Below are positions 23,550 through 47,170 of a stretch of DNA of 64,000 bases, one piece after another. Under the pieces are notes generated by a model. The model was given only the letters and a program-made list of their open reading frames with translations. It was not told the origin of the DNA and made no database searches. The first letter of the stretch is position 1, and every line of letters starts with the position of its first letter. The DNA is from Schmidtea polychroa (Eukaryota), in NCBI GenBank assembly GCA_044892525.1, contig CM097887.1, positions 23,622,001-23,686,000 of the forward strand, read 5' to 3'. Position numbers and translations under genes: made by a program.

Positions 23550-24814
23550 CTTTATATTAACTTCGCGTTTGATTGATTGATTGTACCACGCAAATTTTGC
23601 GACGGCAAATTAACTCACTTCCTGTGATAGGATCGAGCTGAAATTAGGCAGATTGATTCGTTCTATCAAAATTTCAGATGGATGGAATGTAATTGAAACT
23701 AAAATTTTAAAATTTTGAATTTGTATGCAGAAATATTGCTAAACCCCTGAAATGTTAAATTTTAAAGATTTTTCGAATTTTTGAAATGTTTTAATGCAAA
23801 AATCATCTGTCTGTGAAGCTCGAGTTGCAAAAGAAAGAGAAAAACGGAAACTAAAAAAACAACAGGAATCACCAATGTTGATTACGTTTGGCGAAAAAAA
23901 GTAACACAATCGACGACCGACGACAAGATGAATCGCCAACATCTCGCAAATTACAGTTCTCAATTCAACGCGCAATTAATGCCAGTTGAAGCGTAAATGG
24001 CAGTTTCTGTGTATGGCCATCGAATTTGTGAGGTTTGGCCACAAGTGTTGTTATGCAAATCAAGTTTCGAACTACAGATTTGGTGAAAGATCTCCCAATT
24101 ATCTTTCCATGGAACTTTCCAACAAAAAAAACTCATCCGCAGTCCAAAAAGACAACAAGCTAAATCATACTGGAACAACCTTGATCCCGATAAGATTCCT
24201 GAAGAGATCCGAAGTCCGATTGCTAGCTCGCATCATTCCGTTTTTGAAGATCGTCAAGTACGGTGGCATCTTCGGACAATATTGCTTCAAGGGTCAAGCT
24301 ATTGTTGGACTCAAGGTCATGAGAATCAGAATGGAGCTGAAAGGATTGGAAATGGAAATGAATCGTTAAAAAACTGAGCATTTTACAAATAAACTAAAAA
24401 TCAAATATTCCATTAAGTAAAATCGGGAAAAATAACTAAGCAAGAGAATTAAATAGTAAAACAATATATTAAAACAACAAGAAACCTAAATAAGAAAATC
24501 ACGAATAAGGAACAACAAACGACAAACCAAATAAACCTATAAACCAATAAAATAAAATAATAAAATAATATAATGGAATAACGATCGAAAACTAAAAACA
24601 ACCAAAATTTAGCATAAAAACTTGAAATAAAAACAAAAAGAGGCAAAATAACAAAACACAAGCGGAATTATTATCAGAAATTCACCAAAAAATGCGGAAA
24701 AATAAGAATTAAATAACCAAATAAGATAATTAAAAAAACAAATAAAGAATTTATAAAAACAAATAAAAAACCCCAAAATAAGGGAAAATAGTAAAATTAC
24801 AAACTAACTAAGTC

Positions 24815-24840
24815 CTGATTGGATGAAAATTATTATATAA
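24815..24840 (+). promoter_or_regulatory. Inverted CCAAT box plus TATA box of LTR-A
   Basis: CTGATTGG 24815-24822 and TATATAA 24834-24840 at the end of a ~450 bp A-rich tract; mirrored in LTR-B. Confidence 0.65.
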
Positions 24841-26966
24841 GGCGGCCGTTAAGTTAGTTAAGTAACTTCTAAAAATTCATAACAGGTAAAAGCTTTTTTA
24901 TTAAAATCACAGTAACTTCTAAAAATTCATAACAGGACGATCCATCGACTTTAGCAAACAATTAATCAACTCCAAAAAATTCCATACAGGAACTCTAAAC
25001 GGAAACTTCTAGAAACCATAACAGATCAACTCAACTATTTAACAATTATTTTCGAGAAAACAATTACGAATTACAAATATTCATAAAAGGAACTAGAATT
25101 TCAGAAAACTCCAATAAACGATATCCATTCAGCTCCATTTTGAGAATATTCATTGAGAGAAATCAAATCGGATCCAAAAGTAAATATGAATTATGATTTA
25201 TTCATTTTTAAGAAAGATTTATGATATGATGATATTTGTAATTATATGAGTAAAATATTATCCTAATTTAACAATTTTCCATTCTCTCTTCACGGGGATG
25301 CCGGCGACGATATTTTCTGAACATCTGCACATGAGCTCTGAAGTCGTCCAGGAATTTATGATGAACAGAAAATCTATTATGCAATTCCCAATAAAATGGA
25401 ATGTCATCGATAGTAATGATCGAGAATCAGAAGGACAAAATTATATCCATAAAATGTTCTGCTATAGATGTATGAATCAAGAGAGACCATAACGTTTCCA
25501 ATGAAAATCCTGACGATGAGTATCATGAGCGGATTTCAGAGAATGTGGTCACTGGTAAGAGTTTATATATATGATAAATAATTATTTCATTATATTTTGA
25601 TTTCCTGAATTTATTGTAAAAATTTTATATAAGGGTCAAACCGTCTGGCATGGTAGTCCGAAAGTAGTTGGTACTTGTACCGGTGGTTTTCGGGTGGATC
25701 ATGAAAGGTGGTAAGACAAATACCGACTTTATAGATTTGCGATTTTAATGAGAGGCGATTTTGTGTATCATCTTCGAGGTGCAATCACCGGTCAAAACAC
25801 TAACAACACGAATTTTAGATGCTAAAGTATAGATTCCACAATAATTTCAAATCGATAGAAACTCTGATCTATAGGGTTCATGAAAAGTGAAGGTTTGAGA
25901 TCATGGTTTGCAGTGATAGGATATTTTTGATCAAACAAAATTTTGTAAGAGCAATTCATACACAGAGTAGCATTCATCACAATCTTGAGTCAAATAAAAT
26001 CCCACATTCGTTGTATTATAGGGCCAGCCGATGACTTCCTATTTCGATAGAGAACTCCAATTTTTCGATGAACCGTCCTGACGTAGATAGACATCAGAAA
26101 GTCATTGTCGTCCCGAAAAACTTCGGTCGGCATTAATTTCCTCGAATGACACGAGCGATTCGGTAATGAGATAAACAATTTCCACTCATCCATAAACCTC
26201 GAATTACAATAAATTGTTTATAGGTCACATAAACATAGAACGAAAAGTTTATATAAAACGTAAATTGTAATTTCCACAATTTAATACGCGTCTTCCAGGA
26301 TGTAGTTCATACTAATAAATTTTCGGAATTTGTATCATCATTTCACCGACTAATACAATACCAACGCTGCGGGATACTATCAACACAAGTTCAACCATAA
26401 ACACGGTAAATACAATAACTCTATTTCCGTCTGACATTATGATCGACAATTAAGTAAATAAACCACTGTAAATTGGAAATCATGTAATCAAAATCAAATG
26501 CACAAGTAGACGTCTTGGATTCAGCATAATTACGATGGAGTATTATAAACATCCAGCTACAAAAGGACACATAATTAAGATGATTTTTATTTATTAAACA
26601 TTAACGTAATTCCACCTAATAATAATTAAGGCAAATGAAAGATTATGCGATAATTTTTAAATTAACATAATTGATAAAGGGACGGAGGACTTATTAATGT
26701 TTTATTGCGGGAATAAATTGATAAACAATTCACAATTATAGCTATACGGTTTTTAATTAGAAATTAGAGTTAAAAATTGATCAAATCCTTCCCAAGAGTA
26801 AATGCTAAGCAAGTAAATGTGTTACGAGTTGAAGGTACGACTAAAATATACTAATAACTTCTCTGATCCGAACGTTTGTTGTTTCTTTCAAATCGACGAG
26901 CGAGCATATCGATCCATTGTTTAACTAGGTATTTAGCAGGACTATAATCCATTACTTCTTTCAGTT

Positions 26967-27742
26967 ATGACAGAATCAAACCCAGCTATTCGCAGTTTAA
27001 AACCTTGATAATCCTGCTCAGACAAGAATATGGACATTAAAAAACTTCAAGAGCATATAGGGGTCCTGAAAAAGCGTATCGAAACGCTCGAACACACGTG
27101 GTTCTCCCCGCCACAGATGAAAGAGGAAAAATGAAAGTCCTCAGATTAAAACACTGTCGGGACAGTTTGTTGGAGGAAAGCCGCTGTCTGAGCGTCTGAC
27201 AATTAAGGCACAATCTGAAGCCTTACATAAAATCTATACAGATTCGGAAATACAGAAACGGGTGAGAGAATACCCAATTAAAGATTGGACCAACATCTTT
27301 CCTAGCCACCATCAAATTGAAGAACTCAAAGCGTCTGAACTAGCAAGTTGCTCGGGACATGGACCCATGTTCCCAGAAATTTCAACACCGCTTCTAAGCA
27401 CAACATCAAAGGAACCAACTTCTGTCGCACCCAGTCTTCATAACCCTTCTAACGACATTTCTGATTCCAATGCCGAGAAAGAGGCAAATGCGATCCCAAA
27501 GAAGCGAAAGCGGCCTTGAGAGCCGAGCGGACGGCAAAGCGAAGGGAAAAAATGGAAACCCTGGAAGCCACGTTATTTGCGGATCAGTCAGCTATTGAAA
27601 AAATCAACACTAAACAATCAATCAATCAAAGACACTCCCTGATAACTTCAGAGTGATTTCCTCAATAACTACAGTACCTCCGACGGACCCTTGGTTGCAA
27701 GTTGATATAGATGCGCTGTTAACTGAAGGGGAAATGACATAA
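26967..27742 (+). pseudogene. Degenerate paralog of the LTR-B ORF
   Basis: TTTCAG acceptor 2 nt before the ATG. Gives SCSDKN...IKKLQEHIG..KKRIETLEHTWFSPPQMKE...HCRDSLLEESR...QSEALHKIY..NIFPSHH...KKRKR...VDIDALL, with stops and frameshifts. Confidence 0.85.
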
Positions 27743-28233
27743 ATCTCTGCATGGGTCGAGCCGATGCAATTCGCAAAGTATCTTGTAAATAGCATGTGCG
27801 GAAATGCTGCAAATTTCATCGAGACATTCATAAAACTGATCTTGTTTTCATTAACTAATTTAGCTAAGTGTTTTTGATGTGATTAAATTAATATATTTGC
27901 TATGGTGTTTGACTTCTAATGATAGTTAGTATGCTTCAACCGTTTGCCTTGATGGAGATGTTTTCCTTATTCCCGAAACTGGAATATTGTCAGTGTAACC
28001 GGCGCTACTGGCTCGTTTCATTTTCCAGGCGTCGATCTGCCTTCATTTATAATAACATATTAGCATTCTAGTTTGCCGTTCATGGATTTCGTCGATACCG
28101 GTTCAAATTTCTCACTAGGGTGTACATCAAGGTGATTGAATATATTGACAGGGAGACGAGTATGTCTGAGTTTAGTGACGAAAGTGAGAGATATAAAACA
28201 TCGGACCAGGGACGTGAGAATGATGTTAAGGGA

Positions 28234-28355
28234 TAAGTCCTTCTATCGGCACCCGCAAACCTGAACCGAGAAGACTGTGGAGAGTAGTCCTAACATAGGG
28301 GCTCACCTGTCCACCGATTATGACCTGCGTATATATTTCCAACATGAATCATCTC
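28234..28355 (+). other. Conserved structured element near the 3' end of LTR-A
   Basis: TAAGTCCTTCTATCGGC (28234-28250), then GTGGA-GAGTAGTCCTAACA-TAGG-GGCTCA-CCTG-TCCAC (28277-28314); homologous to 43771-43855. Confidence 0.7.
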
Positions 28356-29369
28356 CACAGGTATACGTAAGGGAGATCAATCGTAAGTCATGAAGGGTGT
28401 TTAGGGAAAAAACCTGAGCATAACATCAACCACCCTAAGCACCCAACACAATTTTGTCGACACAAGACATATTCGAACTGGGCAACTTCCTTTGATGCTT
28501 CCTCGATCGATTGAATCTGCTGGATTGATAGTTTTCACTGAAACTTTGGAGAATTTGGATAAAAAGTTTTGATAAAAATTAAGAAAGTGAAATATAGAGA
28601 GTTTTAAAAACTATGGTTTTGTGGTTAAATAATTAAGTCTTGAAAATGACCTTTCTCCAGTACAACTAGTGACTATTAAACTGAGAGACAGTCGCAAAAT
28701 TGATTACACATTTTATATTAACATGTCTTTCATATTACAGAGCTAACATGAATATAAAAGAACGTAGGGATATCAGTGAGCCGAACGCGCTGATATTAAT
28801 TTATACATTTTGAATGTTTATTTATTAGTCATATGCGTAGAATTTCTCCTTATTTTCGGTCCAATGTATCAGTGATCACTGTTTTTAGAATAGTGTAATT
28901 TTAATTTTATCAACAATTTCAATATAAGCCCCTCTTGATCTTGAGGACCTAGACTGAAGCCTAGATAGTTGATAGGAAAATCCCGCCCTGCTTATACGAT
29001 GGGAATAATATAAACAAAATTTCTGTTTTATTATAAAGTAAGCACATATGCACAGTAACAAATTTGAACTGCTACTGCCTAATGCACAGATGAACAAGTC
29101 AAAAATACAATCTTTGACTCTCAGCCAATATTTTCTCACGTGGAAACATACGTTTCTGGTCATGAAGAGGTTAACTATTTTTCAAAAAATTATTTTTGTT
29201 TGATAATTATCCTCCTTGCCATAATGTGTGTATTACATTTGTTGGGGCTGGGCTCGCTTAGGCAGCAATTTTGATAGCCATATAGAGGCTAGGGTTATAA
29301 TTATAATAATAATAAATAATTACTTATTAATAAAAATAGAAATAATTCCTATAAATAAGTTAAGATAAG

Positions 29370-30930: not shown

Positions 30931-31082
30931 CAACATGCTATGGAAAAGCATATGCAGTGGCAAAAAAATCGAAGTATATAGGGTATTTCGGTATTATATA
31001 TTTACATTTCAAAATTATATATTGAAATTTCAAAATTATATATTTATATTTCAAGATTATATATTTTGATGCGAATTTAAAA

Positions 31083-31540
31083 ATGATTATTAGAAAATTA
31101 ATGGAAGAATCAACTATTTTAACTCCGAACACACCTCAACGTAAGACACGAACTCCTGTCAACCTAGAAAAAATCAATACAATAAATCGACTTAAGCAAT
31201 CAGGTCAATGCACAAAATTTATCGCCGAAACATTAAATCTAAGTATATCAACAATTACTAAATTATTGAATAATATCCACTGTTGTAACGAAGAAAATCG
31301 AGAACTAAATACTATTCTTAAAAAGAGCAATAACAAGAAGATGAATAAATAAATCATCACGAACGGTTTCTACTGATGTGATTAACCAACGAAAAGTATA
31401 TTCAAGAGAAATGCGACTTATTCCCAAGTGAAAATTAATTTTTTTAGATGAGAGTGGATTTAATCTCCACACAGGTGCTCATTATGGATACTCACCTGTC
31501 AAGGTTGACGCTTTTCAAATATTGCCATCAAACAGAAGCA
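31083..31540 (+). mobile_element. IS630/Tc1-like transposase 5' fragment
   Basis: HTH (IAETLNLSISTITKLL), then FLDESGFNLHTGAHYGYSP...ILPSNRS with the first catalytic Asp. The frame runs straight into the cassette ORF below. Confidence 0.75.
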
Positions 31541-34500
31541 GGACAGGTAACTCTAGAATTACAGAAGAATGTGGGAGAAGCTGGACCCGAATCATGCGAC
31601 TCTCTGGAATTCCAAACTCAGATGCGACCCGATACATTATGAGCATTCTGCTGGAGACAAACGATCACAGCCGAGAAGGAGATTGCATGGCCCTCAAGCT
31701 TCTTACCTCAATAACCAAGAAGACAGAGGAGGAATATGAGATAAACAGGCGAGATTGTTTGGATTTTTCTAATAATTTAAATAACCTTAATAATAAATTA
31801 AAAAAGAATTCTCAAACCCAAAAATCTTTAAATGATGATAGCCTTTTTGACCAAAACAGAAATGAATACAACAAGATTGTTAATAGCTTTATAAATCCTA
31901 CCCTGCAATATATGCCTATTGACAGGGGAAACGTAGATCTTAATCCGAATAAGCCCAGTTATAGAGACGCCCTTATTGGAAGCAAATCATCTTATAATAA
32001 ACTCCCCATGGGAAAATCCTTCTCTGTGCCTCCAAATAATAAGACGGTATCTAATAATCATCGAAATACCCTTAAAGACTTCGAAACTGAAACTATGCCA
32101 ACACCAGTACCAATTAATGATAATAAAAATAGACCTACTAATAACCCAAATAGGAACAATAATCTTGGTTCTAACAGATCAAAAACCAGTTATTATGATA
32201 ATAAAAACAATTTGCATTATAATACATTGAATCATTATTCTAATAATTATGAAACTACTTCTTATAAAAATTCAAATAAACTGAATCATAATGATATTAA
32301 AGCTACCTCTACTAATAACTCTAATGATTATACAATCACCGGAATATTAATTGCATGGAGAAACCCGATTAAAAATGATTACATGATAAATGTAAACGAG
32401 GCATTCACAAGAGGGGAAAATACGTTGATGAGGGAAGCAATGAAAGGACACAATTTATTCGAAATTCCAAACCAATTATTAGAACGAGGAATAAAGTTCA
32501 CGAACCATAAAGACGAACAGCTACTAAAGAAACGAATCGACACCTTCGAAAAATCAATATTTCAGTTCATAAACAAAGTATGAGATAGATATTGGGTTAG
32601 TGTATTATATATGATGAATACGATGAACAATATCCGCGAGAATTACCTAGACATTATTCAAGTACTTACAGCAGAAGAACGAATCAATAACTCAACCGGA
32701 AAGGAAATAAAAATAAAGAAAGGAGTATCAAAGGAACCGAAGTCGCAAACGAATCAAACTACAACAAATAACGTTACCGAAACAAAACTAATAAATTCAG
32801 ATCAAGAAACAATAATACGCAAAGCCAAAGAAGTGTTCTTCGAAGAAATGCAAGAGTTATCAGACGAAATGATATTGTCAAAAATAATGAAAACCGTACA
32901 TACGTATGCAAGAGATCAAACAACGAATTTAGATATAGGGAAAATCAAAACCTTCATGCCACGAGCATTCACTATGGTAACAAAAGATCAACGAACACCA
33001 TTACAACAGGCAATACTGGCAGCAAAAGAAAACCGAGCGATAACGATCATATGAATCCTCAGAGATTTGGGTGACGAAACCAACACGAAAAACGAACAGG
33101 GCGAAACAGCGATGATGTATGCAGCTATAACAAAAATACACCCAAAAACACTACACATACTACATCAATCCGGATCAAGACTAGACGAGATATCAAACGA
33201 AGGAAACTCCACAATGGATTGGGCAACCATACAGCCAAACCTAGAATTGATCAGATTTATTTGCAAAAATGCGACAAGAGAGGAAGTTGAAAATATCTGC
33301 AAAAACACATCTCAATTCCAGTGGAATACCGTACGAAAAAATCTGGAAGCAATGAAATTACTATTAACATGGAAAATACCGCAAAGTAATAAATACGCGA
33401 TAAACGTAAACGAATTTTATGAAAACGGAGAAAATGCGATGGTCAAAAATACATTAACTAAAGGGGGGACACCAAAAATCATACTAATTGTATTAAATAG
33501 AGAAGATCTGAGATTCACAAAAAACCAAAACGAACAGCAACGAATTGGAAAACACCGCCGTGTACAACTAAGAGAATTAGTAAAAGAATGGAATCGGAAA
33601 AGACACGCAGCAACCGGAAGAAAGGAGTTCGAATTTGAAGCTAAATTAGCAAGAAATAGAGTGTTAACAGCATATCGCAGACTATTGAACGATATAAATG
33701 TCGAGGACGACATTTTAAACGACGGCGGGGGAGACAAAGACGATGATAATGACGGGAAAGGTCAAAAGGAAGATAAAGAGAAAAGAAAGCCGGATGAGAA
33801 TAACCAAGAAAACAAAGACCCAGGTACGGAAAAGGAGGGAAACAACCCGGAGAACGAGATGAAAGGGGAGGAAAAAACAAATAATGGAAAACAGAGGGTA
33901 TGCCTACCTTTCACCAACAAAGAAATGGAAACAAATATGATATTATTGATAATTGTGCTGACCATGATAGAGTTAGTAACAGCCCATGGAGGAACGAGAA
34001 CGATAGAAGAGACCAAAGAAGCGGATAATCACGACAACAAACAGGAAGAACTAAAACAAGAAAAGAAAAAGCAAGTGCAAGAGCAACAATGGGATCTAAA
34101 AGAGGAATGGAATCTAAAGGAAAGGTGTATACTAGGAAGATGCATGTCTAGAGCATATCAGAGATTAGTGTTGATAAACGAGGACACAGAACCAATAACG
34201 GAAGTGGGAATACAAGAAGCATACCAACATCGAAACGGGAAGAGAATAACGAAGGTAAAATGGAAGGAGATACACCTAGGGAAAGGAGGCGAGATAGCGA
34301 TAACAGAACTCCAACCAAGGAAAGAACACAAAGTCTGTATCTCAAGGTTAGGACCGGGAGAAAACTGCCTACAATATGTAATACAGCAACAACCACCAAA
34401 AGAATATACGGTCTGTATCATAAGGAAAGGACCGGAAAGGGAATGCCGACGATACCCGGGGAAAAGAGGAAAGAAAAGAAAAATCAACGACAAAGGAGAA

Positions 34501-34974
34501 GAGAAGGAAAAACGCAAGAAAACCAATGAGAAAAACCAAGACAATTATGTGTCAGAAGAAGAAATGGAAAAAATACAAAATATGGCAAAAGAAGGTATCA
34601 GCGAGGAGATAGCAAGAATACGAGGGATGATGAAGGGAAATGGGAAAAGGGGAATCGAGAAAAACACAAAGACGGTATCAACAATTACGAACAAAGAAAA
34701 ATCAGAAATTATCAGCGTAAATCAGATGATATGGATCAGTGGAATAATAATAACCCGAGCGTTCATAATTATAACGGGGGGGGACGATAAAAATAATCCG
34801 AGACAAAAGACAGCGTCACCAACTCGAAATGATCAGAGTCAGAAATTTCCAACATCGAGTGAAAAGACCCAGCAAAATAAGCCAAGAACAGTGGATGGAG
34901 GCCTGGAATACGCAGCGCCCTCCAAATCCACGGATATAGAAAGGGTTATGACTGTATATAATTGTAAAAAGTAA
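31540..34974 (+). pseudogene. Cassette ORF1: ~1145-codon ankyrin-repeat / membrane protein, 5' end missing, two in-frame TGA
   Basis: ORFs 31522-32583, 32611-33054 and 33067-34974 are one frame broken only by TGA at 32581 and 33052. Order: Asn-rich region, three ankyrin repeats (RTPLQQAI, GETAMMYAA, GNSTMDWA), charged linker, hydrophobic MILLIIVLTMIELVTA, tandem Cys motif (KEHKVC..C / KEYTVC..C), second hydrophobic segment. Confidence 0.7.
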
Positions 34975-35101
34975 GTATATCTTATGTATATAACAGTACC
35001 ATATTTTTATATAAACGCGGTATAAATATTATAAAAGCTCGGGTAAATAAACAATATAAAATTAAATAAGACAAAGATTGAGAATGTATATAAAATTAAG
35101 A

Positions 35102-35461
35102 ATGGATCAAGTAAATCACGAAATAAACCACAACATCGCAACCGAAGACATGTGGAAGCAACAATGCGCTGTGCTAGCACAATTAGTATCTAATCTACAA
35201 GAGCAAGGACTTACGATGCAAAGAAACCTAGTCGATAGTCTAAACAGAGGATTTAGTTATTTAAAAATAATTGAGGATCAGAGGATAAAAATCGAACAAA
35301 TGCAAAGAGAGATAGAACGGATAACACGATATAGTCAGAGACAAGAAATCGAATTAGAGAGAATGGCGGAAGAAGCAGAACAAGAAGAAATGGAAGACTG
35401 GTCAGAATGGTTAATGAGGAGAGAGGAGGGCGGACATGAAGCCGACTCGTCTGAACCATAA
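35102..35461 (+). CDS. Cassette ORF2: small coiled-coil protein with acidic tail
   Basis: Open ORF with heptads. ATG at 35102 follows TTAAG-A. Confidence 0.6.
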   Translation: MDQVNHEINHNIATEDMWKQQCAVLAQLVSNLQEQGLTMQRNLVDSLNRGFSYLKIIEDQRIKIEQMQREIERITRYSQRQEIELERMAEEAEQEEMEDWSEWLMRREEGGHEADSSEP

Positions 35462-35545
35462 ATAAAACCCAAACTAGATGTAAATAATTGTAAATAAAAT
35501 ATCGAACCTGTATCGATAAGAAACTATATGTATATAATTGTAGAC

Positions 35546-36881
35546 ATGGATAAAGAGAGACGAGAGGAGTTTAACGTAATCATTGAACTAGTCAGAAATT
35601 CCACAGTAATCAAAATACAAAAACATGTTATGTGCGGAATATGTGAAAAGTTGTTAAAAGAACCCCATCAAACCAAATGCGGATGCAGATTATGCAAAAA
35701 ATGCATAGAAGAAACAATAAAAAACAGACCACAGTGGTGTCCGGTATGTAAAGAGACACTGATATCAAGTTTAGAAGATACCAATGAAGATAAGGCCGCA
35801 GTAAAAGATATGTTGAACGCTAATCTGGGATGCAAAAATACTCCATGCGAGTGGAAAGGATTAATATGGAAAGTAAAACAACATATGGGGGAATGTATGT
35901 ATAGAGTCAGCCAGTGTGAACGATGCCAGAAAATAATCCAAGCTAACGAAGAAAAAGAACATCAAAGTCAATGTGAAGAAAGGCTAGAAATATGTGAGTA
36001 TTGCGGAGAGATAGACACATGGAAAAACTTAACCATCAAACATCACAATGTACAAGAAGAACAGGTATGCGCTGAATTCTGTGGTGAATGCCCAAATGGA
36101 TGTGATAAAGGCGGAAGGATAAAAATAGCACAGCACTTAAAGGAATGTGAAAAGAAAAGAATGATATGTGTACTAGGCAAATGGGGCTGTCGGAAACTAC
36201 TACACCGAGGGGAATTACCACACCACTTAACAGAAAATGTAGCCACTCACGCAGAAATGTGGTCAACTGCGTTACAAGAAAATGAAGAAAAGGTTTAACA
36301 AATGGAGATAGAAATAACATCGTTGAAAGCATTGGTAAAGGAACTATTGGAGGAAAGAGAAGCGTTCGAGGAAGCCCGAGCAAACATAAAGATGCAAATA
36401 AATCGGATAGAGATCAGTAATAATCAGGCCAAGGAACTACATCAGAAAATAAACGAAATAAATCTAAACGAGGTAATACCAACAGCGCCTTATATATGGA
36501 AAATAACAGGAGTAAAAGAAAAGATACGAAAAGCAAAAACTGGGGAAGAGACAAGAATAACAAGTCCTGCATTCCATTCTTGGAAGAACGGGTATAAAAT
36601 GAAAATGAAGATATATCCCAACGGGGACGGAACCGGATTAGATACACACTTTTCGATAATCTTTCTGTTATGTAAAGAGGAATATGACGAAATATTAGAA
36701 TGGCCGTTTCAGGCAAAAGTCGACATTATAATAATGAACGATCAAAGCATACACGAGCAAAGCTTCAAAACAACGGGGAATCAGATAGCCTACCAGAGAC
36801 CCCTCGACGAAGAAGGATCAGCAACGGGAGCACCTACGTTCATTCTGCAACGGAAAGTGGAAGAGATGACGAGAAACGACA

Positions 36882-36957
<76 letters not shown>

Positions 36958-36996
36958 ATGACAGTGAGGAAAGACGGAAAGAGCCGAACAGAGTAG
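35546..36996 (+). pseudogene. TRAF: Cassette ORF3: intronless TRAF-family protein (RING, TRAF zinc fingers, coiled coil, MATH)
   Basis: RING CGIC...CGCRLCKKC...CPVC; CKNTPCEWKG; CERC/CEYC/CPNGC fingers; MATH YIWKI...GYKMKMKIYPNGDGTG..HFS...EYDEILEWPF. One in-frame TAA at 36296. A (TA)n expansion shifts the last strand DTIYIKMTV out of frame. The specific paralog is not assignable. Confidence 0.92.
36884..36954. repeat. (AT)35 microsatellite inside the TRAF MATH domain
   Basis: 71 nt AT run in place of the ATA TAT ATA codons. Confidence 0.95.
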
Positions 36997-37182
36997 CCAG
37001 TGTGAATAATGTTGTATATAATTTGTATATATCGGTGCATATAACCAATAAAATAGTATATAATAAAGGTATGGGAACCTCAAATACGACAACCCAAAAA
37101 TGAAGCGAAAAATCTGTGAAAAACATTAATTGAATAATAAAATTGTTACAAAAATGAATTTATCAATACCTCTAATTTAGAA

Positions 37183-38091
37183 ATGACACAAGAGCAAATA
37201 ACCACAAGTACTGAGGGTCCAGCAATAATCAGAATTAGTGAGGAAAACAAGAGGAAGTGGACTACAGTAATGTCTCAATTAGCCAACCTAACTAGAAATC
37301 ACATTGAAGAGGCTAGGGAGTATGAAAATAATAAATATCGATGGCTAGTAGACAATTTGAGAGCCGAGGCAGAAGCGTGCAAAAGAGCCTCTAAGTGGGC
37401 GTCGTTAGAAAATACCCGTCAGGAAGCGCACAGTCACTACCTAAAACAGCTAGTGCAAGAAGCAAGAAAGAGACTTACTGATGAGAACACAAAACGAGAA
37501 GCGGAAAAGCAAAGAGAAGGAAGGAAAATGATCCACCTATTGGCAGAAGCCAGGAAATGGAAGCGACAAAGCAGAGAGATAATAAAGGAAATGAAGGAAT
37601 TGCCTACGAGATTAAAATACGAAAGCGAACAGGGCAAATGGGAGGAGAATCTAATCCTAAAGGAGGAACAAAAACGGCTAAGAAAAATTGCCGCCCGAAG
37701 TCAAACATGGCAGACTAAGGCCATGGAGTTTGAAAGACACTTAGCAATGAAGATCTCCATAAGGGAACACGAAAATGCCGCAATGGAAGAGATGATACTA
37801 CAGCAATCGGGACGAGTCGTGGAATTAGCAAATAAAGTCGCCGAGCTAGAACGGGATAACAATGGGTATAAAGGAGCTCTGGAACAGAGAAATATGGTAC
37901 TGGAGGGGAAAAATAAAAAGCTAGAGATCGAAAGGAAAATGTATGATGAAAATATTAAAAATTTAGAAATAGAGATCGAAAAATGGAAGGGCGACGAAAA
38001 AATCAAGGCACTAGACAGACAAATAGAGGTGAAGGACGAGGTACCTCACCTATTTGCTCGACGAGGAACTCAACATTTCAAGGGCACTTAG
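37183..38091 (+). CDS. Cassette ORF4: 302 aa E/K/R-rich coiled-coil protein
   Basis: Open ORF with continuous helical/heptad character. ATG follows TTTAG-AA. Confidence 0.7.
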   Translation: MTQEQITTSTEGPAIIRISEENKRKWTTVMSQLANLTRNHIEEAREYENNKYRWLVDNLRAEAEACKRASKWASLENTRQEAHSHYLKQLVQEARKRLTDENTKREAEKQREGRKMIHLLAEARKWKRQSREIIKEMKELPTRLKYESEQGKWEENLILKEEQKRLRKIAARSQTWQTKAMEFERHLAMKISIREHENAAMEEMILQQSGRVVELANKVAELERDNNGYKGALEQRNMVLEGKNKKLEIERKMYDENIKNLEIEIEKWKGDEKIKALDRQIEVKDEVPHLFARRGTQHFKGT

Positions 38092-38401
38092 AGATGAAAT
38101 TCACAAGCTGAGAGCTCAAATTCCCCAACACTATGTACCTTACGACCCCGTTGCTATCCAGTTACGGTCTTCAGTCGAGAGCGACGAAGGATACGTGGGG
38201 CAAGAGGAGACCTTCGTGTAAATAAATACTATGATTAAAAAGACAAAAAAATTATAAAATCGGGACCTATATCCCAAACAAAAAAATTAAAGGTATAGTA
38301 AAAGTATCCAAGGGACTGTAACCCTAATTATCTAAAATTGCATATGAATGTATAAGTATAAGCCGCATTATAGCGCACTATTAATTGTACATATTATAGA
38401 C

Positions 38402-39103
38402 ATGAAGATTGAAGAAATAGTAGAGCTCATGAGTGACGTAGAAGAAAGAGAGATGGAAGCAGAAACCACAGAAACACAAATGCTAAAGGAAGAGTTATGG
38501 GAAGAGAAGCGTGAAAACGAGAGATTAGTAAACAAATACATAGAAGACCGGAAAATAATAAAAGTACTAAAGAAAGAGTGTAAAGTATTAGGAGAAGTAA
38601 AGAGAAAAGTTGAAGAGGAAAACGAATGACTTCACGAACAAAGGAAGCGAGGGAAAAACTGGGAAAAGATCGCGGAAGAATTATGGCAAGAAAGAGCCAG
38701 TAGAAAAGCAGACGAAGTAATTAGCGATTATTGGAAAACAGAGGCACGGAAACACCAAGAAAGCCTGAAAGAGTTACAACTCCAACTACATCATAAACAA
38801 AAGGAATGTGAAATAATGAGAAGAATGAACCACAAATACCAAGAAATAGACGATGAGAAGAGAAACAGAGAAGATGGAGAAAGAGAAAAGTACTTTCTAC
38901 AACTGATGAATCATAAAAACTTAGAGAGAGCCACCCAAGAAATAAAAGTATTAAAAAGAAAAATAAAAATCCTAAAACAACAGGTAGATGAAAAAGACAA
39001 ACAACTAGAAGTACTACCCGAATTAAGAAAACGGGTAATAAAAGCAGAAACTAAAGTGATGAGAGCATCTGAGAAAGCCCGAAAAAAGAAAGCCCTTCAA
39101 TAA
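38402..39103 (+). pseudogene. Cassette ORF5: coiled-coil protein with one in-frame TGA (38627)
   Basis: ORFs ending 38629 and starting 38816 share a frame with no other stop. ATG at 38402 follows TATAG-AC. Confidence 0.7.
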
Positions 39104-39157
39104 TTAAAGATGAATAATCGATGTGAATAATGGTAAATAAAAAATATGTATAATAGT

Positions 39158-39796
39158 ATGTGGCCCGGAGCAACCCTCGTAATAATGATAATAATAATAA
39201 ACGAAATTCAAGCGAAACAGTCAACCCAAAAAGGCCAGAAGATTACCGAGAATCAGATTTTCCCACAAGACCTCATAACCAAATTAAGAAACGGAAGAAA
39301 ATCCTACAACCACATCCAGAAACAATGTTGGAACAAAGCCGTCTGGCAAAAGATTCAAACGCAACTCATCCTGCAAACCCAAAAAATCGAACAACTCAAA
39401 ACTCTTCTACAAAAACAAACTATCCAACAATCCTTGAAAGAAACCATCGTGAAGAAGGAAGCCAAAGAGAGTCAAGTCTTACTCTATATTACAATCAGTG
39501 AAACCATCATCATCTGCACGCTAGTCATCTGGAAAGCGTATGATATCCATCGAACATGGCAAAGAAATCAGCCACTTACCGAGAAACCCAAAAGAAAGAA
39601 ACCACGAACAAGAAACGTACCAAAGCGGACAGTACATTTTCAACAATCCGATCCACCTGACCTATCTCCCAGCCAGATACCCGCGACAATTCAACTCACC
39701 ACAGCGACAACATCGACAAGCCATCCAATCCAGAATTCCCAAGATTCTCGACAATCAACCAGCGATGACAGTAATCATGACATCGACTATCCATGA
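39158..39796 (+). CDS. Cassette ORF6: predicted type I membrane protein
   Basis: Signal peptide MWPGATLVIMIIIINEIQA, Q/K-rich helical ectodomain, TM VLLYITISETIIICTLVIW, basic then S/T/P-rich tail. ATG follows AATAG-T. Confidence 0.65.
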   Translation: MWPGATLVIMIIIINEIQAKQSTQKGQKITENQIFPQDLITKLRNGRKSYNHIQKQCWNKAVWQKIQTQLILQTQKIEQLKTLLQKQTIQQSLKETIVKKEAKESQVLLYITISETIIICTLVIWKAYDIHRTWQRNQPLTEKPKRKKPRTRNVPKRTVHFQQSDPPDLSPSQIPATIQLTTATTSTSHPIQNSQDSRQSTSDDSNHDIDYP

Positions 39797-39921
39797 ACTT
39801 TGTGTATATAAATCTGGTCACCTTAAGTGACATCTGCTTGCTTTATATTTGTCCTTTAACCAGTAATATAGTCTTGTTTTATTTTTGCTTTTTATGTATG
39901 CATGAAGTAAGTTGAGTATGC

Positions 39922-39959
39922 AATTGCGGGACGCAATTTTGTCGGGTCCCCGAGTGATT
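39922..39959 (+). promoter_or_regulatory. Pre-LTR hairpins at the expected polypurine-tract position
   Basis: AATTGCG-GGA-CGCAATT (7 bp stem), TTT, then TCGGG-TC-CCCGA and GTGATT immediately before TGTTGGG. Not a canonical purine run. Confidence 0.4.
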
Positions 39960-40292
39960 TGTTGGGCTGAGTCGAAAACTTAACTTTTGAAAATTTAGAA
40001 AATAAGACAGTAGGATATTAAAGAAAATAAAAATAAAATAAATAAATTCAGGAATAAAATAGAATAAGAAATAAGAGAAACAATAATTAGAAAATAAGAA
40101 TTAAAACAAAATAAAAATAAGAAAAATTAAAATAAGACAATTGAATGACGAACAAAATAATGTAAAATTCAATAAATAATGAGGAAATTAAGGAAATAAA
40201 TAGAAAATATAGTAAAAATAAAGGAAATAAGGAAAAATAACCAAAAAACAGGAAAAAGTAAATTAAATTAAGAAAATAAGCGGTACTCAATT

Positions 40293-40329
40293 CTGATTGG
40301 TCCGCATACATGCAAAAATACTATATAAA
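40293..40329 (+). promoter_or_regulatory. Inverted CCAAT box plus TATA box of LTR-B
   Basis: CTGATTGG 40293-40300 and TATATAAA 40322-40329 after a ~300 bp A-rich tract. Confidence 0.7.
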
Positions 40330-42752
40330 CAGACACGAAACTCATTGCAATCACTGTTAATTTCAACTTGCTATAGACGATAACCACGCAGAATTTACGG
40401 AACCTACTCAAAGAATAATATTCAACACGAAATCATCGCTATTTAAGGAAACGACAGGATCAAGGACTAATAGACAAACCTCACAGGAAACTAGCTCGTA
40501 AACTTCGACTCAGCCCACAATAAATTTCGAATCGATAACTATAGTAAGAAAAGTTTCTATTTGTTTTTAGATTATTAATTATTATGAAGTATTACCTAAC
40601 GATTGAAAACTTTGTTTAATAATAGCGTGTCTTTTCATTTGATTTCCCCGTAATGGATTTTGATTAAATTAACTATTTTAATGTCTTATAGTAAACATTC
40701 ATAAATAAATTATTTATTTCAGGAAGTTTTTGATGATGTGTTTTCATGCATGAATATCTTACGAATCTAAATTTTTATGAGAAACGTGGCGTTAAGACGG
40801 ATGGCGTCATGGTAAGAGGTGCCTTCGGGAGCTCTGCCGGTGGACGTGCATCGTTTCAATCACGCAGCTGGATTGGGCCTGAAAGTGAGGGTCCAATCGC
40901 TGAAGATGACTTAAAATTTGATTTGAGTGACAGAAATTTGGTCATAGTAGTAGTTCTAAGCCTATAATGGAGTATAGCTATGCGATTTACAGTGATTGAG
41001 GTGAACACTCTATCTATACGTACAAGCTCCGAGGGTACTGAGTAGCTCTTCGAGAGAAACATGCGAGCTAATAATGAAAATCTCTGAAGTGACTGTCTCT
41101 ATTCGTTCGAAACTTGGCTCTAAGCTCGAGTGAAATTTAGTCTCCATTTACTTTGACAATAATTACGTTTTTCGGAAATCATCTTTTACCTTCTAAGAAA
41201 GTACAATCACGGCGGGTATAAAAGAAATTCAATCATAAATTAAGACATATGAGGACATTTTATTTAAAACACCGTTATGAACAGATTGTCTACTACCTGA
41301 ATCAGTCTCCTTTTCTACGACTCCACATGAGAGGCATCATCGTCGAAACAGCTCTTATAGTCACCTTCTAGTTAATCTAGGGAGACGTTTCCGCACCTGT
41401 TATATCCAACGGCGGAAGACACGATAGTTAGTGACGAAATCCAATTTCGTAGAACAGTTGTGAATTAATAGGCAATGATGCCATCATAAAATTTTCTAAC
41501 ACACGATAAGTAGATAAGTAAAGTCCAGCACACGTTAGTAGGTTCTATGAACACGGATTGGTGAGAAGTGAACGATTTGAATTTTCCAGCGTTACGTGCA
41601 TGGATTGATAAGAGGTTCATCAAGCAACACATGAATAGATAAACCTTATGAGAGTGATTGTTGATAAGCACACTGCCACTAATCTCACCTGACAGTACAC
41701 ACGATAAGATTTTGAGCAATGTGAATAGCAAGGAGTGATCACATTAGATAAGAAATAGCACGAAACGCAGAACTCCGGTTGTTAACTCTCAGATCATGTT
41801 GCTGATAAAATATTAATGTCACTAACCAGATAAATTAACCAAATCTGTAACCGACTGCAGAATGTCCAGACGCATTAAAGTACATTTATAAATTGACCCT
41901 TCTCAATTATCATCGAAATTGTTGGGTAATTATTGTAGACAATCCTAAATTTCAACTAAGCAATACGATAAAGTCATATGAGCCTTTACTACAGTGAATT
42001 GTCGGAAGTACGGTTAAACGCCTGAATAGATAAAATCCCATCCAAATGATTTCCAAAAGAATCCTAAATAATTAGACTAAATTTTCTAACCTAACTAATA
42101 AGCTTGTATTTTAAAAATTTCTAACCCCTTAGTAAATAATGCATGCTTATAACCCTGTCATGAGAATCACGAGTTACTCTACCGTTTGAGTATATTAATA
42201 TAATCCTACACTCCGGATAACAATCTCAAGGTGTGGTTTGAAGGTAGCACCAGTAGAAGGGTATGACGAGTGAATTGACTGAATTCAGTAGCGCTAATAG
42301 TATAACTCTGCAATAGTTTCGTTTTTCTAGAGACCTTAACTAGCAGCTCAAACAACAACCTAAAGTTAATTAAGCAAAAACCGACAGTACAGTAAATGAT
42401 AATACAACCTACTTTAACGGGTAATCAGCGATATTTTGAGTAATCACCATAGGAAAAAAATAATAGTTAGTAGTAGTCAACCAACCAGTAACAGTAAAAC
42501 GAATTATAATTAACCAGGGTAAGCAAAAAGCGGAGAATATTATAAGTAATTATTTAAGAGTAGTGTACGACATATCTGGCGCTACCGCTAAAATCGATCT
42601 AATAATAGGTTCAATAATTCCAAGGGAGGGTTCCTTTCTCTACTTCCTGTGTTTGTTTATATCTGATAGTAATTCAGCCACTACTCCCAATTCCCAATTC
42701 ACAGTCATAGTATAACTTAACCCTCATGTTTCCTTCTTTACAGTTATTCAAC

Positions 42753-43502
42753 ATGTTACCGAACAACAAGTCAGTACTACAGCCTTGCTTCTCCTGTGCA
42801 GATAAAAATGCAGTGATTAAAGATCTACAAACCCAGATCGGTCGATACAAGCGTAAAATCGACGAGCTGGAAGGCACATGGTTCAGCCCAGTGCAAATGA
42901 AAGAAGTGCAGAAAAAGCTATACCGTAGGGAGCACTGCCGGGACGCTCTAATCTCCGAGAGCCGCTCCCAACGAAGCTTAATTAAAGAACAATCCGAAGC
43001 GCTACATAAGGTATATGTACAAGCAGCAACAACTAAGAAAATCGTTCAAATCCCCCTCAATGAAGCCGATAATCTGTTCCCAGTGCACCACGACACCTCG
43101 GCGAAGTCATCGTCTCCATTTAAGAGATCATGTCGTGAGTGTGTAGAAACCGAGCTTTCACCGAAATGTCTAGATATTATCTTCACGGGGACTAGTAAAG
43201 CACAGCCCAACATCATACCCACATCCGCAGGGCCGCAGGTGAATCAACCAATATCGAAACCTAAACGCCGGCAACTATCGAGGGCCGAGCGCAAGAAGAG
43301 GCAGCGCGAACGAGCGTTAACCAAATCAAACAACCCCTCAACGGGAAATCCGATCAATATCGACAACTCCCACATATCCATCGATCTAACCACAGGAATC
43401 CCAGCGCGGATTATCTCAGCCGCTGGTGTGACATGGGAGGAAAATGCCGCCGAATTCTTCGATTTAGATGAATTGCTAAAAGACACCGAGTGGGAGAAAT
43501 GA
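42753..43502 (+). CDS. LTR-encoded 249 aa protein (CxxC, coiled coil, basic NLS-like tract, acidic-hydrophobic C-terminus)
   Basis: Intact ORF 9 nt after a TTTACAG acceptor (AG 42742-42743). Motifs CFSC, KPKRRQLSRAERKKRQRER and EFFDLDELLKDTEWEK*. Homolog at 26967-27742. Confidence 0.8.
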   Translation: MLPNNKSVLQPCFSCADKNAVIKDLQTQIGRYKRKIDELEGTWFSPVQMKEVQKKLYRREHCRDALISESRSQRSLIKEQSEALHKVYVQAATTKKIVQIPLNEADNLFPVHHDTSAKSSSPFKRSCRECVETELSPKCLDIIFTGTSKAQPNIIPTSAGPQVNQPISKPKRRQLSRAERKKRQRERALTKSNNPSTGNPINIDNSHISIDLTTGIPARIISAAGVTWEENAAEFFDLDELLKDTEWEK

Positions 43503-43770
43503 ACACCCACCGCGAAATGCTCTCCTTGACTACCATCTGATATACTCTTTTGTCTTGTATTTTCATTGATTCTCTCCCTTATGATAGTAACCTTTGCAAT
43601 GTACAAAATTCAGTGTTATAATATTATAATAAAAGTGTTGCTCTTATCTGTCTTTTGGTGAGGAATTACGTACCGATTTTTGGGTGAATGAAAGTTTTCT
43701 AGATTTGAAGTGTCTCAGTAAATTTGCATTCGGCGTACTTTAGCGGGGGTTTTGACAGCGTGATTAGACG

Positions 43771-43890
43771 TAAGCCCTCCTATCGGCGGTCGTGTGGAAG
43801 AAAGTCGAGGCCTCAGTAAGGAGTAGTTCTAAGGCAGGGGCTCACCTGCTTACTGGCGTCTCGTCGGCATAGTACAGTTCCAACGTGAAA
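43771..43890 (+). other. Conserved structured element near the 3' end of LTR-B
   Basis: TAAGCCCTCCTATCGGC (43771-43787), then CAGTAAG-GAGTAGTTCTAAGG-CAGG-GGCTCA-CCTG-CTTACTG (43814-43855). Confidence 0.7.
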
Positions 43891-44028
43891 TAATTCACGG
43901 GACTATGTTGAAGGATAGGTTATGTGGGGTTCTACTCAAATTTGACAAAAGGATAGCTATTAGGCGAAAATGGACAATCACCCCTTAGAGCGTTAATATA
44001 GGGCGGTCAACCGAGTGGTACCCCAACA

Positions 44029-44303
44029 CTTACGAAAATGAAACAAATTTTGAACAAGCTAGGAATAATAACTTCGAGAAGTACAAAAATTTAGCAATTG
44101 ATATAGGCCATGCACACAACTGCAAAACCTCACTGCTAACTCTTGTTATTGGTACACTTGGCACATGGGATAGGAAGAACGACAAAGACCTAAGGATAAT
44201 TGGTCTGAGTAAAGCAGAAATTAAAGCTCTAGCAAATAAAGCCTGTACAGCAGCCGTAATCAGCAGCTACCACATATACAGAGAGCACATCTACAAAGAC
44301 TAA
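44029..44303 (+). mobile_element. 3' end of an REL-endonuclease non-LTR retrotransposon (NeSL/R2/R4-type); target of the LTR element
   Basis: (P)YENETNFEQARNNNFEKYKNLA...LVIGTLGTWDRKNDKDLRIIGL...SSYHIYREH*. Not in the ORF track. Confidence 0.85.
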
Positions 44304-45399
44304 CACATACCTCCATATTTCTTTATATATTATCTATCTCTCAAAGCATTACCTTATTTATATCAAATCTATTCTCTATTATACTAAAATATTAACTATC
44401 CCTTTGCAATGATGAGATTGATAGATGGTATTGTTTGTATTTTGAGTACTGCGTATGATTGTACTGTTATTGATAATAGCAATNNNNNNNNNNNNNNNNN
44501 NNNNNNNNNNNNNNNNNNNNNNNNNNNNNNNNNNNNNNNNNNNNNNNNNNNNNNNNNNNNNNNNNNNNNNNNNNNNNNNNNNNNNNNNNNNNNNNNNNNN
44601 NNNNNNNNNNNNNNNNNNNNNNNNNNNNNNNNNNNNNNNNNNNNNNNNNATACTAATAATAATATTAATAATAATAATAAAGAGTAATCCCTTAAGCTTA
44701 ATTGACAAAAATATATTTGCAATAACCTAAACCATACACCTCTTCGGGTAACCGACTTATTTACTAGAAAGGACCCACCATGATGAATATCCAATGATGA
44801 ATAGAGCAATACCACTCCGACTGCCTGACACTACCTCAATCGTCAATCACTTAAAAACATGGCCTGCCGGAGCTCCTTAAGCTGCACCTGTAGTCCAGCA
44901 ATCAGAAAAACATATTAATCAGAAGCCAACCAACGTGAAAATCTATCCAGTTATAGACAGGGAAAAACCATACTCTACTCCAATGACATATTTGACACCT
45001 ATCCCTCAATCCAATCAAACTACGGAACCCAAACCCAACTCCAATGACTAATTTCTCAAACAATCAAATCAATCAAACATTTCATATATCGCATCACTTA
45101 TCTTATTGTGTTTTAACGTTTAATCCAAGAAACCTTAACCCAATCACTCCAACCAATCCAACCAGAAGGCCATAGTACCCTATGTGCCAATATCCAAATT
45201 TTTGTGTTGTCTTACTTTATATCTATATTATAGTAATTTTTAGTAACGTCACCACCACACCTGGCTTACGACAACCTTTCTAAACCAATAAATATCAATT
45301 CCTTCCACCAATACCTTCCAAACTATACCTATCAATACTACATCTTCCTTTCAAACCCTTAACCCTCAATCCCATACAATCAGTGTTCTCAGTTACAAT

Positions 45400-47170
45400 C
45401 CGAAAAAGATGATTGATATTGATAATGTTGATATTATTATGAAACACCCGCATATTGACAAAATACATCGAACTAAAGTAGCATGTGTTACACCGATGTA
45501 GGTACTACTATTGGAATCAGATAGCGAATAACATTATACAGCAGTTCCTGATTTACAACGACTAATAAATTTCCGCAAAACTCATAGTTACACAGTCCGT
45601 ATCCAATGCAGATGGTGCGAGACATGTTTCAGAAAAGAGAAACAGCTTTTACCAAGCATGCAATATTATGTAAAAAGAATCAATTGGGCACCAATTATAC
45701 ACGTTACCATATCACAAGGACCTAAAATTTAATGAATGGTCAAAAATAGTAACTCCTCCATTTGTCATATATGCCGACTTTGAAGCGATTTTGCCTCTGG
45801 ATAAATGATATCACCAGAAACATCGATAGCAGCGGAGTTGTTACTGGTAATTAATTTTACAGGGGCCACAAAATATATGGATTTTATTTTGGCAGATTGT
45901 GTATATCGTTTTCTGGTTGAAGTTGAAAATATTGTAAATAGTATCGTGAGGGTTTATTACAAGAAAATGGGCCATATGCAAATGAATTTCCTCACTAATC
46001 AAGAAAAATTGCAGTTCCGCACATCAGTAAATTGTTGTGAAAAAAACCTATGTTAGAGCAAATGAGATACCGTCATCACTTTACGGGCAAATATCTAGGA
46101 CCCGCATGCAATGTATGCAATAAACAACGAAAAATCAGAGAAACATCGCCTGTCTTATTTCATAATCTTAAAGAATATGATTTACACCATATATTGAAAT
46201 ACGGACTCAATCAGTTTTCTCATCGGGGTCCCAGTTGCATTCCAAAAAGAACTGGGAAATTTTTAACATTGATAGCATGGCTGGGAAATTTCATAATAGG
46301 ATTTATAGACTCATACCAAATTGTTAATACTTCGTTGTACAATGCAGTTAAAACATTGAACGAATTAGCATTGATTCGTTCAGTTTTTAATACTTGAACT
46401 AATATTAATAACACAGGTATATTTCCTTACGATTTTGCCACCAGTTAGGAAATCCTAGAAACAACGTATGAATTGCCTTCTATTTAGGAAAATGTTACTA
46501 ATGAAGCGTATGAAATAGCGCGACAAATATGGTAAGAAACAAAATGCGAAACTCTAATGGATTATTTACAAATATATTTGAAGCTTGATGTGTTTTTGCT
46601 TGCCGATTTTTTTCTACAATTTAGAGTAAAATCAAAAGCACATAACGGACTCGAGCCGCTTAACTTTTTTGGAATCCCTGGAATGACTTAGGCATTTGAA
46701 ATTATCAATTGACATGGAAATGTATAATTACTTCGAGGGTGGAATCCGTGGTGGTCTCATATTTGTAAATAAACACCACGCCGTAACAGATGATGAAACA
46801 GAGTTACTTTATATCGATATAAACAACTTGTACGGGTGGGGACTAAGCCAGAACTTACCATGTGGTGGATTTGAGTGGATATATGATGAAGAAGCGTTAT
46901 TATCAATTAACAGATTAACAATTAACAATTAATATATGAATGATTGCGTTAATAATAGACTGGAATTATTACCATATGGATACACTTAGAAAATGGAATT
47001 AGTTATTCCATGTAATATTCATGATTTATTAGACTATTTTTCAGTGGCTGCTCAGAAAATGTGTCCACGTGTAGCTATCCCTCAATTTGCGCCTATGAGT
47101 GTGAGCATCCATGGATCTACTTCGTAACCATCTTAATTGATTATTACATGCCGAATTGAGGAAATATCAT
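45400..47170 (+). pseudogene. polB: Polinton/adintovirus-type protein-primed DNA polymerase B, heavily degenerate and 3'-truncated
   Basis: PPFVIYADFEAIL (Exo I), HHFTGKYLGPACNVCN, VLFHNLKEYDLHHI, FIDSYQI, GIFPY, YLKLDVFLLAD, EGGIRGG, LYIDINNLYGWGLSQNLP. Many frameshifts and stops. Confidence 0.9.

Follow-up and report, generated by a model that had tools for sequence, protein, structure and literature searches.

Layout of the locus

This analysis concerns a 64,000-nucleotide stretch of Schmidtea polychroa DNA (contig CM097887.1, positions 23,622,001 to 23,686,000; G000:C3:23622001-23686000), referred to here as the window, and a retroelement remnant within it whose relatives we sought throughout the 781-Mb genome. 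The remnant occupies 32332-44028 (11.7 kb, plus strand, as are the LINE parts and the solo LTR described below) and comprises a polyprotein tail, five accessory genes and a 3′ long terminal repeat (LTR), corresponding to the 3′ part of an approximately 30-kb Ty3/gypsy family. With a probability of roughly 0.9, we read the stretch as what decay has left of the 3′ end of one copy of an env-bearing Ty3/gypsy retrotransposon of Burro type, which sits inside a long interspersed nuclear element (LINE).

The element part opens with the C-terminal tail of a gag-env-pol polyprotein (32332-34939), recognized from Pfam matches and comparison with relatives. Behind it lie accessory gene 1 (35102-35461, approximately 120 amino acids (aa), predicted helical), gene 2 (35546-36996), which Pfam and the relatives identify as a full-length TRAF gene of approximately 462 aa in relatives, the coiled-coil-like genes 3 (37183-38221, 345-351 aa in relatives) and 4 (38402-39103, approximately 234 aa in relatives), both delimited from the relatives, and gene 5 (39158-39796), predicted to encode a type I membrane protein. 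A 3′ untranslated stretch (39797-39959) adjoins the LTR, and the sequence abutting the LTR at the plus-strand primer position is conserved and not purine-rich. The 4,069-bp unit bounded by TGTTGGG...CCCAACA that an earlier note on this DNA had pointed out ends at 39960 and 44028 and recurs elsewhere with the same ends; one solo LTR, flanked by ATAG on both sides, is 94.5% identical to this 3′ LTR. The LTR contains an open reading frame (ORF) of 258 aa (42726-43502) of no known family (no Pfam family matched; best Atlas score, 0.83).

The intronless, A-biased ORFs described in the same note do lie on one strand across 31594-39796, with 43.9% A in 32332-39959. Its cassette of approximately 8.4 kb actually measures 7.6 kb, with 31539-32318 belonging to the LINE, and its six genes resolve into five free-standing genes and a polyprotein tail. 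The ankyrin-membrane protein reads as that tail and not as a separate gene, because rve and Ank_2 share one frame in a relative.

In total, four internal stops, two frameshifts and one TA expansion have damaged the window copy. The one tail, broken by stops at 32581 and 33052 and by a frameshift near 34780, accounts for three ORFs (329, 147 and 620 aa), the first being a deletion chimera that is LINE for approximately 242 codons and Burro thereafter. Likewise, the ORFs of 256 and 217 aa are one TRAF gene broken by a stop at 36296 and a (TA)n expansion at 36884-36954, and frames of 93 and 157 aa form one broken coiled-coil gene. A frameshift lies near 38040 in gene 3 and a stop at 38627 in gene 4; genes 1 and 5 are open. 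The copy is unable to move on its own, and what the locus holds is an inert piece of a giant retroelement of known kind.

On both sides, the remnant is flanked by a LINE of the restriction-like endonuclease (RLE) type. The 5′ part of this insertion target (31539-32318) provides the chimeric 329-aa ORF with approximately its first 242 codons, and the 3′ part (44029-44479) carries the endonuclease C terminus up to 44303 and then 3′ untranslated sequence, with a further LINE match at 44650-44994. In four of four loci fetched, both pieces belonged to one RLE-type LINE with a reverse transcriptase (RT). Cassette matches at 20 other places (21 candidates scored) all began at window position 32332 or later; 31539-32318 matched another repeat, and several such places also carried the sequence found right of the LTR, 5.4-6.8 kb away. 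Because the LINE halves are contiguous elsewhere, we conclude that the element inserted into the LINE and that its 5′ part has gone together with approximately 5 kb of LINE (4,956 and 5,233 bp against two LINE copies), leaving a junction at 32319-32331. By comparison with relatives, the absent element sequence amounts to approximately 18 kb (5′ LTR, gag, env and pol), and a later deletion likely took it together with the LINE segment. No gag or pol match was found in the window, as the earlier note had stated, or in the 10 kb to its left; only the 3′ LTR is present and the left target-site duplication (TSD) is lost. At its right end the LTR cuts the LINE frame inside an endonuclease motif, and the frame continues through this point in four of four uninterrupted copies, which bears out the insertion junction proposed there.

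Anatomy of the family

An exact 27-mer across the junction between internal region and LTR was found in 195 genome copies (reversed control, 0), which is a lower bound, as other subfamilies carry a variant junction. Eleven relatives were fetched, 10 of which had LTR pairs 99.0-100% identical and a primer site, and all nine with both ends resolved were flanked by 4-bp TSDs (CTAT, ATAT, ATAT inside an AT run, GTTG, CTGG, GTAT, CAAA, ATAC and CTAA); outside this count were one relative with an unresolved 3′ end and one copy without an LTR pair in range. The six copies with LTRs aligned end to end measured 28.6-30.6 kb, with LTRs of 3.8-4.2 kb. The primer-binding site (PBS), GGGCTCAGCCGGGAT, present in 10 of 11 relatives, is perfectly complementary to the 3′ terminus of tRNA-Pro(TGG) genes found in this genome.

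Pfam analysis of a relative revealed, in order, Retrotrans_gag, two CCHC knuckles, Monjiviricetes_fusion, protease (PR), RT, RNase H (RH), integrase (IN) and ankyrins, the last in the same frame as the integrase. The env domain (PF24664, Monjiviricetes_fusion, E = 2.5e-70) precedes RVP in one frame, with the same order in 10 of 11 copies, and the best solved-structure match for the RT region was Ty3 Gag-Pol (E = 2e-120). Ahead of env, cut-out pieces matched PF00240 ubiquitin (E = 5e-4), PF11976 (E = 0.018) and PF00452 Bcl-2 (E = 0.044), all short of the curated cut-offs and in an order that agrees with the published Burro order; three ubiquitin-like (Ubl) repeats were seen by eye in the window family, one with Pfam support. 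A single open frame of 4,811 codons was present in one of the 11 copies, the others being split into in-order pieces. The family also has a leader ORF of 159 aa of RING type (RING read by eye) and an LTR ORF of approximately 250 aa, and gene order between pol and the 3′ LTR was fixed in the relatives examined. The full family frame is gag-Ubl-BCL2-env-PR-RT-RH-IN-ankyrin-membrane tail. Paired LTRs, TSDs, PBS and gag-PR-RT-RH-IN, all of which the earlier note had proposed to look for, were found in relatives. Of its proposal of a truncated giant-LTR Ty3/gypsy element of the Burro kind, the kind of element stands, and the 5′ boundary and gene count had to be revised.

Three further observations concern these copies and their primer. 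An RINM(L/M) motif recurs at polyprotein domain borders, including just behind the integrase. In one relative (L014-L015/L047), a gypsy element of 8 kb that bears ubiquitin is nested in the 3′ LTR, and behind that LTR follow an extra PBS, 980 bp and a short LTR end closed by the TSD, likely an aberrant reverse-transcription end. The tRNA-Pro(TGG) genes occur in a tandem array with a period of 475 bp (L127-L129), and the genome contains 1,577 pattern matches.

Relationship to Burro and other giant elements

The same genome harbours a Burro1-type family (L103-L110) whose RT, IN and env are 91%, 81% and 58% identical to those of the window family. The two members fetched are 35 kb long with 4.76-kb LTRs, TSDs and a MATH domain inside a 4,791-codon ORF1, and the 3′ cassette comprises a small gene, TRAF, BIR-RING (an IAP), two coiled-coil genes and a membrane gene. 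Both families share the LTR start TGTTGGGCT, the PBS, 4-bp TSDs, the leader RING ORF, the cassette order and a spacer motif described below, whereas their accessory proteins are only 27-32% identical (30% for the homologue of gene 1) and the membrane gene is not alignable. Burro1 (GYPSM1) proper has ORF1-MATH and BIR, as does the sister family; the window family has neither. It is thus best classed as a Burro sister family without ORF1-MATH and IAP, and possibly as the counterpart of Burro-2, -3 or -4.

Published Burro elements, as reviewed in PMC6431247, resemble the window family in their length of approximately 30 kb, multi-kb LTRs, polyprotein of approximately 4,800 aa (ORF1 lengths of 4,873 and 5,140 aa are given), Retrotrans_gag, CCHC knuckles, ankyrins, ubiquitin/SUMO-like and BCL2-like modules, env in frame between gag and PR, PR-RT-RH-IN order, and MATH/TRAF and coiled-coil cargo. 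The same source lists ankyrin, MATH/TRAF, Smc-like coiled coil, BIR, BCL2-like and SUMO-like cargo with env between gag and pol, so that the novelty claimed for the cargo set is largely removed, a homologous cassette being present in the Burro1-type family as well. The window family differs from them in confining MATH to a RING-TRAF gene that stands free, 3′ of pol, in lacking a BIR gene, and in having two CCHC knuckles and three Ubl-like repeats (PMC6431247). A Burro-like element of Dugesia tigrina is described there with an ORF1 lacking MATH, two CCHC knuckles and MATH_TRAF in a separate ORF, as here, but with the MATH ORF upstream, whereas in the window family the TRAF gene lies downstream of pol and the upstream ORF is the 159-aa RING protein (PMC6431247). 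In the parts available, one further paper names Burro once (PMC11410931), another describes BURRO1 as abundant, active and PIWI-controlled (PMC8532177), and a third has no Burro (10.64898/2025.12.11.693146).

GAG-ENV-POL errantiviruses with a gB-type env, from Platyhelminthes, Nematoda and Bryozoa, likewise place env between gag and pol, and the Monjiviricetes_fusion match is a further point of resemblance; in the main text of that paper, as available, we found no Burro, planarians, ankyrin or TRAF, and no 3′ accessory cassette (PMC13524379). The Ogre elements of plants, complex retroviruses and fish foamy-like endogenous retroviruses also have long LTRs and carry accessory ORFs in the region from pol/env to the 3′ LTR, with one ORF reaching into or lying within the LTR. 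Ogre differs in having one or two extra ORFs and no env (PMC6431247). The kind of element and most cargo types are thus already in print. A literature search, which did not cover the original Burro paper, brought up none that takes as its subject the 3′ cassette of Burro, the spacers in it or the swapping of alleles; against the accessible parts of that literature, purifying selection on the cargo, the swapped membrane gene and the spacer motif with AG are apparently new.

Selection on the cargo and mosaic ancestry

We estimated dN/dS by pairwise Nei-Gojobori comparison of 9-10 relatives, excluding saturated pairs, pairs whose dS did not exceed 0.1, and matches covering less than half of the probe. 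Median values were 0.01 for RT, 0.03-0.15 for the tail, 0.12 for gene 1, 0.09 for TRAF, 0.06 for gene 3, 0.17 for gene 4 and 0.21 for the LTR ORF (8 pairs); the median for gene 5 was approximately 0.5, with most pairs crossing alleles. The tail and genes 1-4 are under purifying selection and therefore the cargo serves the element.

Gene 5 falls into three allele groups, 17-27% identical to the group of the window copy, with shared topology. In the MATH and gene 3 trees, L073 pairs with L019 (100/100), yet the two stand across a 100/100 split for gene 5, and L064 and L081 show the same conflict between gene 3 and gene 5; the trees hold 17-20 of 20 rows, and for that of gene 5 a long-branch warning applies within the other side. 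By its ankyrin and MATH sequences, the window copy, whose subfamily is 10-20% diverged from other copies, comes nearest to the L014/L019 group, from which its gene 5 is far removed. These conflicts indicate that the last membrane gene has been swapped among subfamilies, giving them a mosaic ancestry, and the cause is likely template switching between co-packaged RNAs.

Predicted features of the accessory proteins

The polyprotein tail comprises ankyrin repeats, an acidic linker, a hydrophobic segment, a predicted Ig/FN3-like beta-sandwich, a transmembrane segment and a short tail. Its structure model is weak (pLDDT 46.9); the beta-sandwich at model residues 62-195 matches Ig/FN3-like folds with Z up to 8.0, a similarity that in a model of this kind is no more than a common arrangement, and an Atlas search returned FN3-ankyrin, FANK1-like proteins at 0.89, as leads only. 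Gene 2 encodes RING, zinc fingers, a coiled coil and MATH. Gene 5 is predicted to have a signal-like N terminus, a helical ectodomain, a transmembrane helix and a disordered tail, with helices only (pLDDT 62.9, pTM 0.25), and no PDB entry matched its fold at E up to 0.001.

A TRAF-binding PxQxS/T/D motif in the two membrane proteins proved unsupported: it occurred in 9 of 22 tails (a count omitting L074 and L082), nearly all from one allele group, and shuffles of those tails carry it at 20-32% (8% in one). The PRQKT in the window's tail lies behind the frameshift and is absent in relatives. The TRAF, BCL2-like, RING and sister-family IAP proteins may dampen host death and immune signalling in the producing cell, a role for which we regard the odds as even.

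TRAF and MATH copies across the genome

Among the best 150 scored matches of a genome-wide MATH search (of 1,484 candidates), 123 lay in frames of 671-4,846 codons, and both long-frame matches fetched were Burro1-type elements. The planarian TRAF/MATH family is reported as expanded (PMC6109357). Because most of the best MATH matches lie in long frames, counts of planarian TRAF genes need Burro filtering. Four intronless RING-TRAF frames of 455-473 codons (L111, L112, L113 and L119) were fetched with 10 kb of sequence, in which neither an LTR ORF nor any accessory gene of Burro was present. In the tree, these host-like TRAFs stand outside a clade (98/97) made up of the element TRAFs; they may be host retrogenes or old domesticated copies.

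Signals in the spacers between the 3′ genes

The spacers are 54-220 nucleotides (nt) long and 72-80% AT, with TATA-like words. In the window, TGTATATA lies at 34953-34960, 13 nt after the family's ORF1 stop, TGTAAATA at 35479 (+17 after the gene 1 stop) and TGTATATA again at 37013 (+16 after the TRAF gene stop); a variant, TGTGAATA, follows gene 4. Three natural copies supplied 16 spacers. In 14 of these, TGT(A/G)(A/T)A(A/T)A lay 13-19 nt downstream of the stop, compared with 0.6-3.5% of the shuffles of each, and in 15 an (A/T)AG stood at most 6 nt before the next ATG, as chosen (shuffles, 28-47%).

The strict form TGTAHATA was found after 13/13 ORF1 ends, 16/16 TRAF genes, 15/17 copies of gene 4 and 0/16 of gene 3 (7/7, 9/9, 8/10 and 0/14, respectively, counting distinct sequences). 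Among control ORF ends, few of which are genuine ends of genes, it followed none of the 92 from outside Burro and one of the 38 premature ORF1 ends; it followed none of the four host-like TRAF frames. The sister family, with accessory proteins approximately 30% identical, had the loose form in six of six. The motif equals the Pumilio element UGUAHAUA and also includes the UGUA of 3′-end processing. Retroviral accessory genes are made by cis-splicing.

From these signals, the accessory genes are somewhat more probably than otherwise processed separately into their own mRNAs. Cis-splicing from a 5′ donor is a possible route; spliced-leader (SL) trans-splicing, which PMC10899757 reports for Schmidtea, is doubtful, and internal promoters or reinitiation would be equally doubtful.

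Other features of the window

The second unit that the earlier note had flagged as one of the same design (24303-28448) reads as a solo LTR of a related giant-LTR family set in another repeat (TSD CTAT/CAAT, one mismatch), because its internal ORF is homologous to the LTR ORF of 39960-44028 (E = 2e-22) and because empty sites read CAAT (in three of four) where the window reads CTAT-LTR-CAAT; DNA comparison of the two units gave no match.

The LINE family hit by the insertion (L043-L046) is 6.3-7.3 kb long, with an RT and a weak Ulp1 protease match, and in two copies its long frame is broken by one in-frame stop just before WSQH. Two LINE copies with long inserts were inspected for signs of Burro targeting and held no full copy of the window family. 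At the locus, the LINE 5′ end is set into a Tc1/IS630-like transposase fragment (31026-31548; weak Pfam matches to a helix-turn-helix and to DDE_3).

Elsewhere in the window, 217-bp perfect inverted repeats surround a 299-aa ORF on the minus strand (53544-55068), likely a young terminal-inverted-repeat transposon, and three tandem 425-bp copies, >99% identical, each carry an ORF of 126-149 aa (49747-51021). A hAT-like transposase frame (21817-23058) was noted, together with small elements with CAGTGGTTCTCAAAC ends (56656-56843 and 62303-62512). Broken frames at 45400-47000 resemble protein-primed DNA polymerase B of the Maverick/Polinton type.

Alternative explanations

Were the cassette a cluster of host genes, for instance a TRAF locus, placed next to an LTR by chance or picked up in a single transduction, then the planarian TRAF/MATH expansion (PMC6109357) and the intronless RING-TRAF frames of 455-473 codons without a nearby Burro gene would find a ready place. 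The fixed gene order between pol and the 3′ LTR in relatives, the separate clade of element TRAFs and a tail in frame with the integrase speak against it, and for this locus the relatives' anatomy and the integrase-frame tail refute a host cluster, leaving that explanation a negligible share. Absence of ORF1-MATH and of a BIR gene, the single relative (29% identity) that the TRAF protein found among 7,997 candidates scored, and 3′ free-standing TRAF and membrane genes not described in the review, as far as accessible (PMC6431247), could instead point to a distinct, undescribed giant-LTR lineage with new cargo that only converged with Burro. We consider this very unlikely, given an RT 91% identical to that of a family with all Burro1 hallmarks, the same TGTTGGGCT start and PBS, homologous leader ORF and 3′ genes in that family, and the movement of accessory ORFs between polyprotein and separate frames among Burro elements (PMC6431247). 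A false join between the ends of a LINE and of a Burro copy, made during assembly, would explain why the junction at 32319-32331 was seen at the window locus only, but both flanks belong to one LINE family in correct order and orientation, and a subfamily 10-20% distant from the other copies leaves no collapse of them to invoke; this, too, is highly improbable.

A rival that accepts the same element concerns its expression. Here the 3′ genes would be translated by termination-reinitiation on one long RNA or transcribed from internal promoters, and TGTAAATA would serve as a forkhead-type site in the DNA, or simply for repression by Pumilio, rather than as a signal for processing. Short, AT-rich spacers with TATA-like words suit this explanation, as does the fit of GTAAATA to a forkhead consensus, and no spliced genomic copies were seen (0 of 3 deletions). 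The motif, however, keeps its distance of 13-19 nt from the upstream stop in short and long spacers alike, the alternation of TGTAAATA and TGTATATA fits UGUAHAUA better than a forkhead site, and AG precedes 15 of 16 ATGs as chosen; we hold this rival to be tenable, with the odds against it.

Several observations weigh against the Burro reading and the expression model built on it. Burro membership is drawn from anatomy and from the sister family in this genome, not from comparison with a published Burro sequence, and the window family is without MATH in ORF1 and without BIR, there being neither room nor a match between TRAF and gene 3. Between PR and RT, the dUTPase-like region gave no Pfam match at E up to 1 (the published call used HHpred). 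The order of events at the locus, insertion first and deletion later, is itself a reconstruction. In the dN/dS counts, dS is near saturation and pairs are non-independent. The spacer motif was defined post hoc from viewed spacers and is absent after gene 3 (0/16) and after the leader ORF; of two possible ATGs, the one behind an AG was chosen, which inflates the 15/16; and as traces of spliced RNAs, none of three internal deletions in other copies falls on the spacer signals. The PxQxS/T motif, which an LMP1/CD40-like TRAF-recruiting receptor would conserve in its cytoplasmic tail, showed no such conservation among the 22 tails.

Proposed life cycle and implications

For a Burro-type element of this anatomy, relatives would replicate by tRNA-Pro-primed reverse transcription and integrase-mediated insertion, and the element protease would likely free the ankyrin-membrane tail. 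Each 3′ gene would likely yield a separate mRNA, with an AG acceptor before its ATG and a UGUAHAUA 3′-end or Pumilio-type element behind its stop; the position-fixed spacer signals predict where such mRNAs would begin and end. Template switching between co-packaged RNAs would likely swap the 3′ genes.

A bolder and unlikely extension is that the Burro 3′ cargo forms a eukaryotic operon, with membrane-gene exchange resembling a serotype locus and with element TRAF/MATH genes making up much of the planarian TRAF expansion. In such an operon, cleavage at the UGUAHAUA element downstream of every stop would divide one long LTR transcript, and each following gene would acquire the spliced leader of the host at the AG that precedes its ATG. 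An LTR element using trans-splicing would be unusual.

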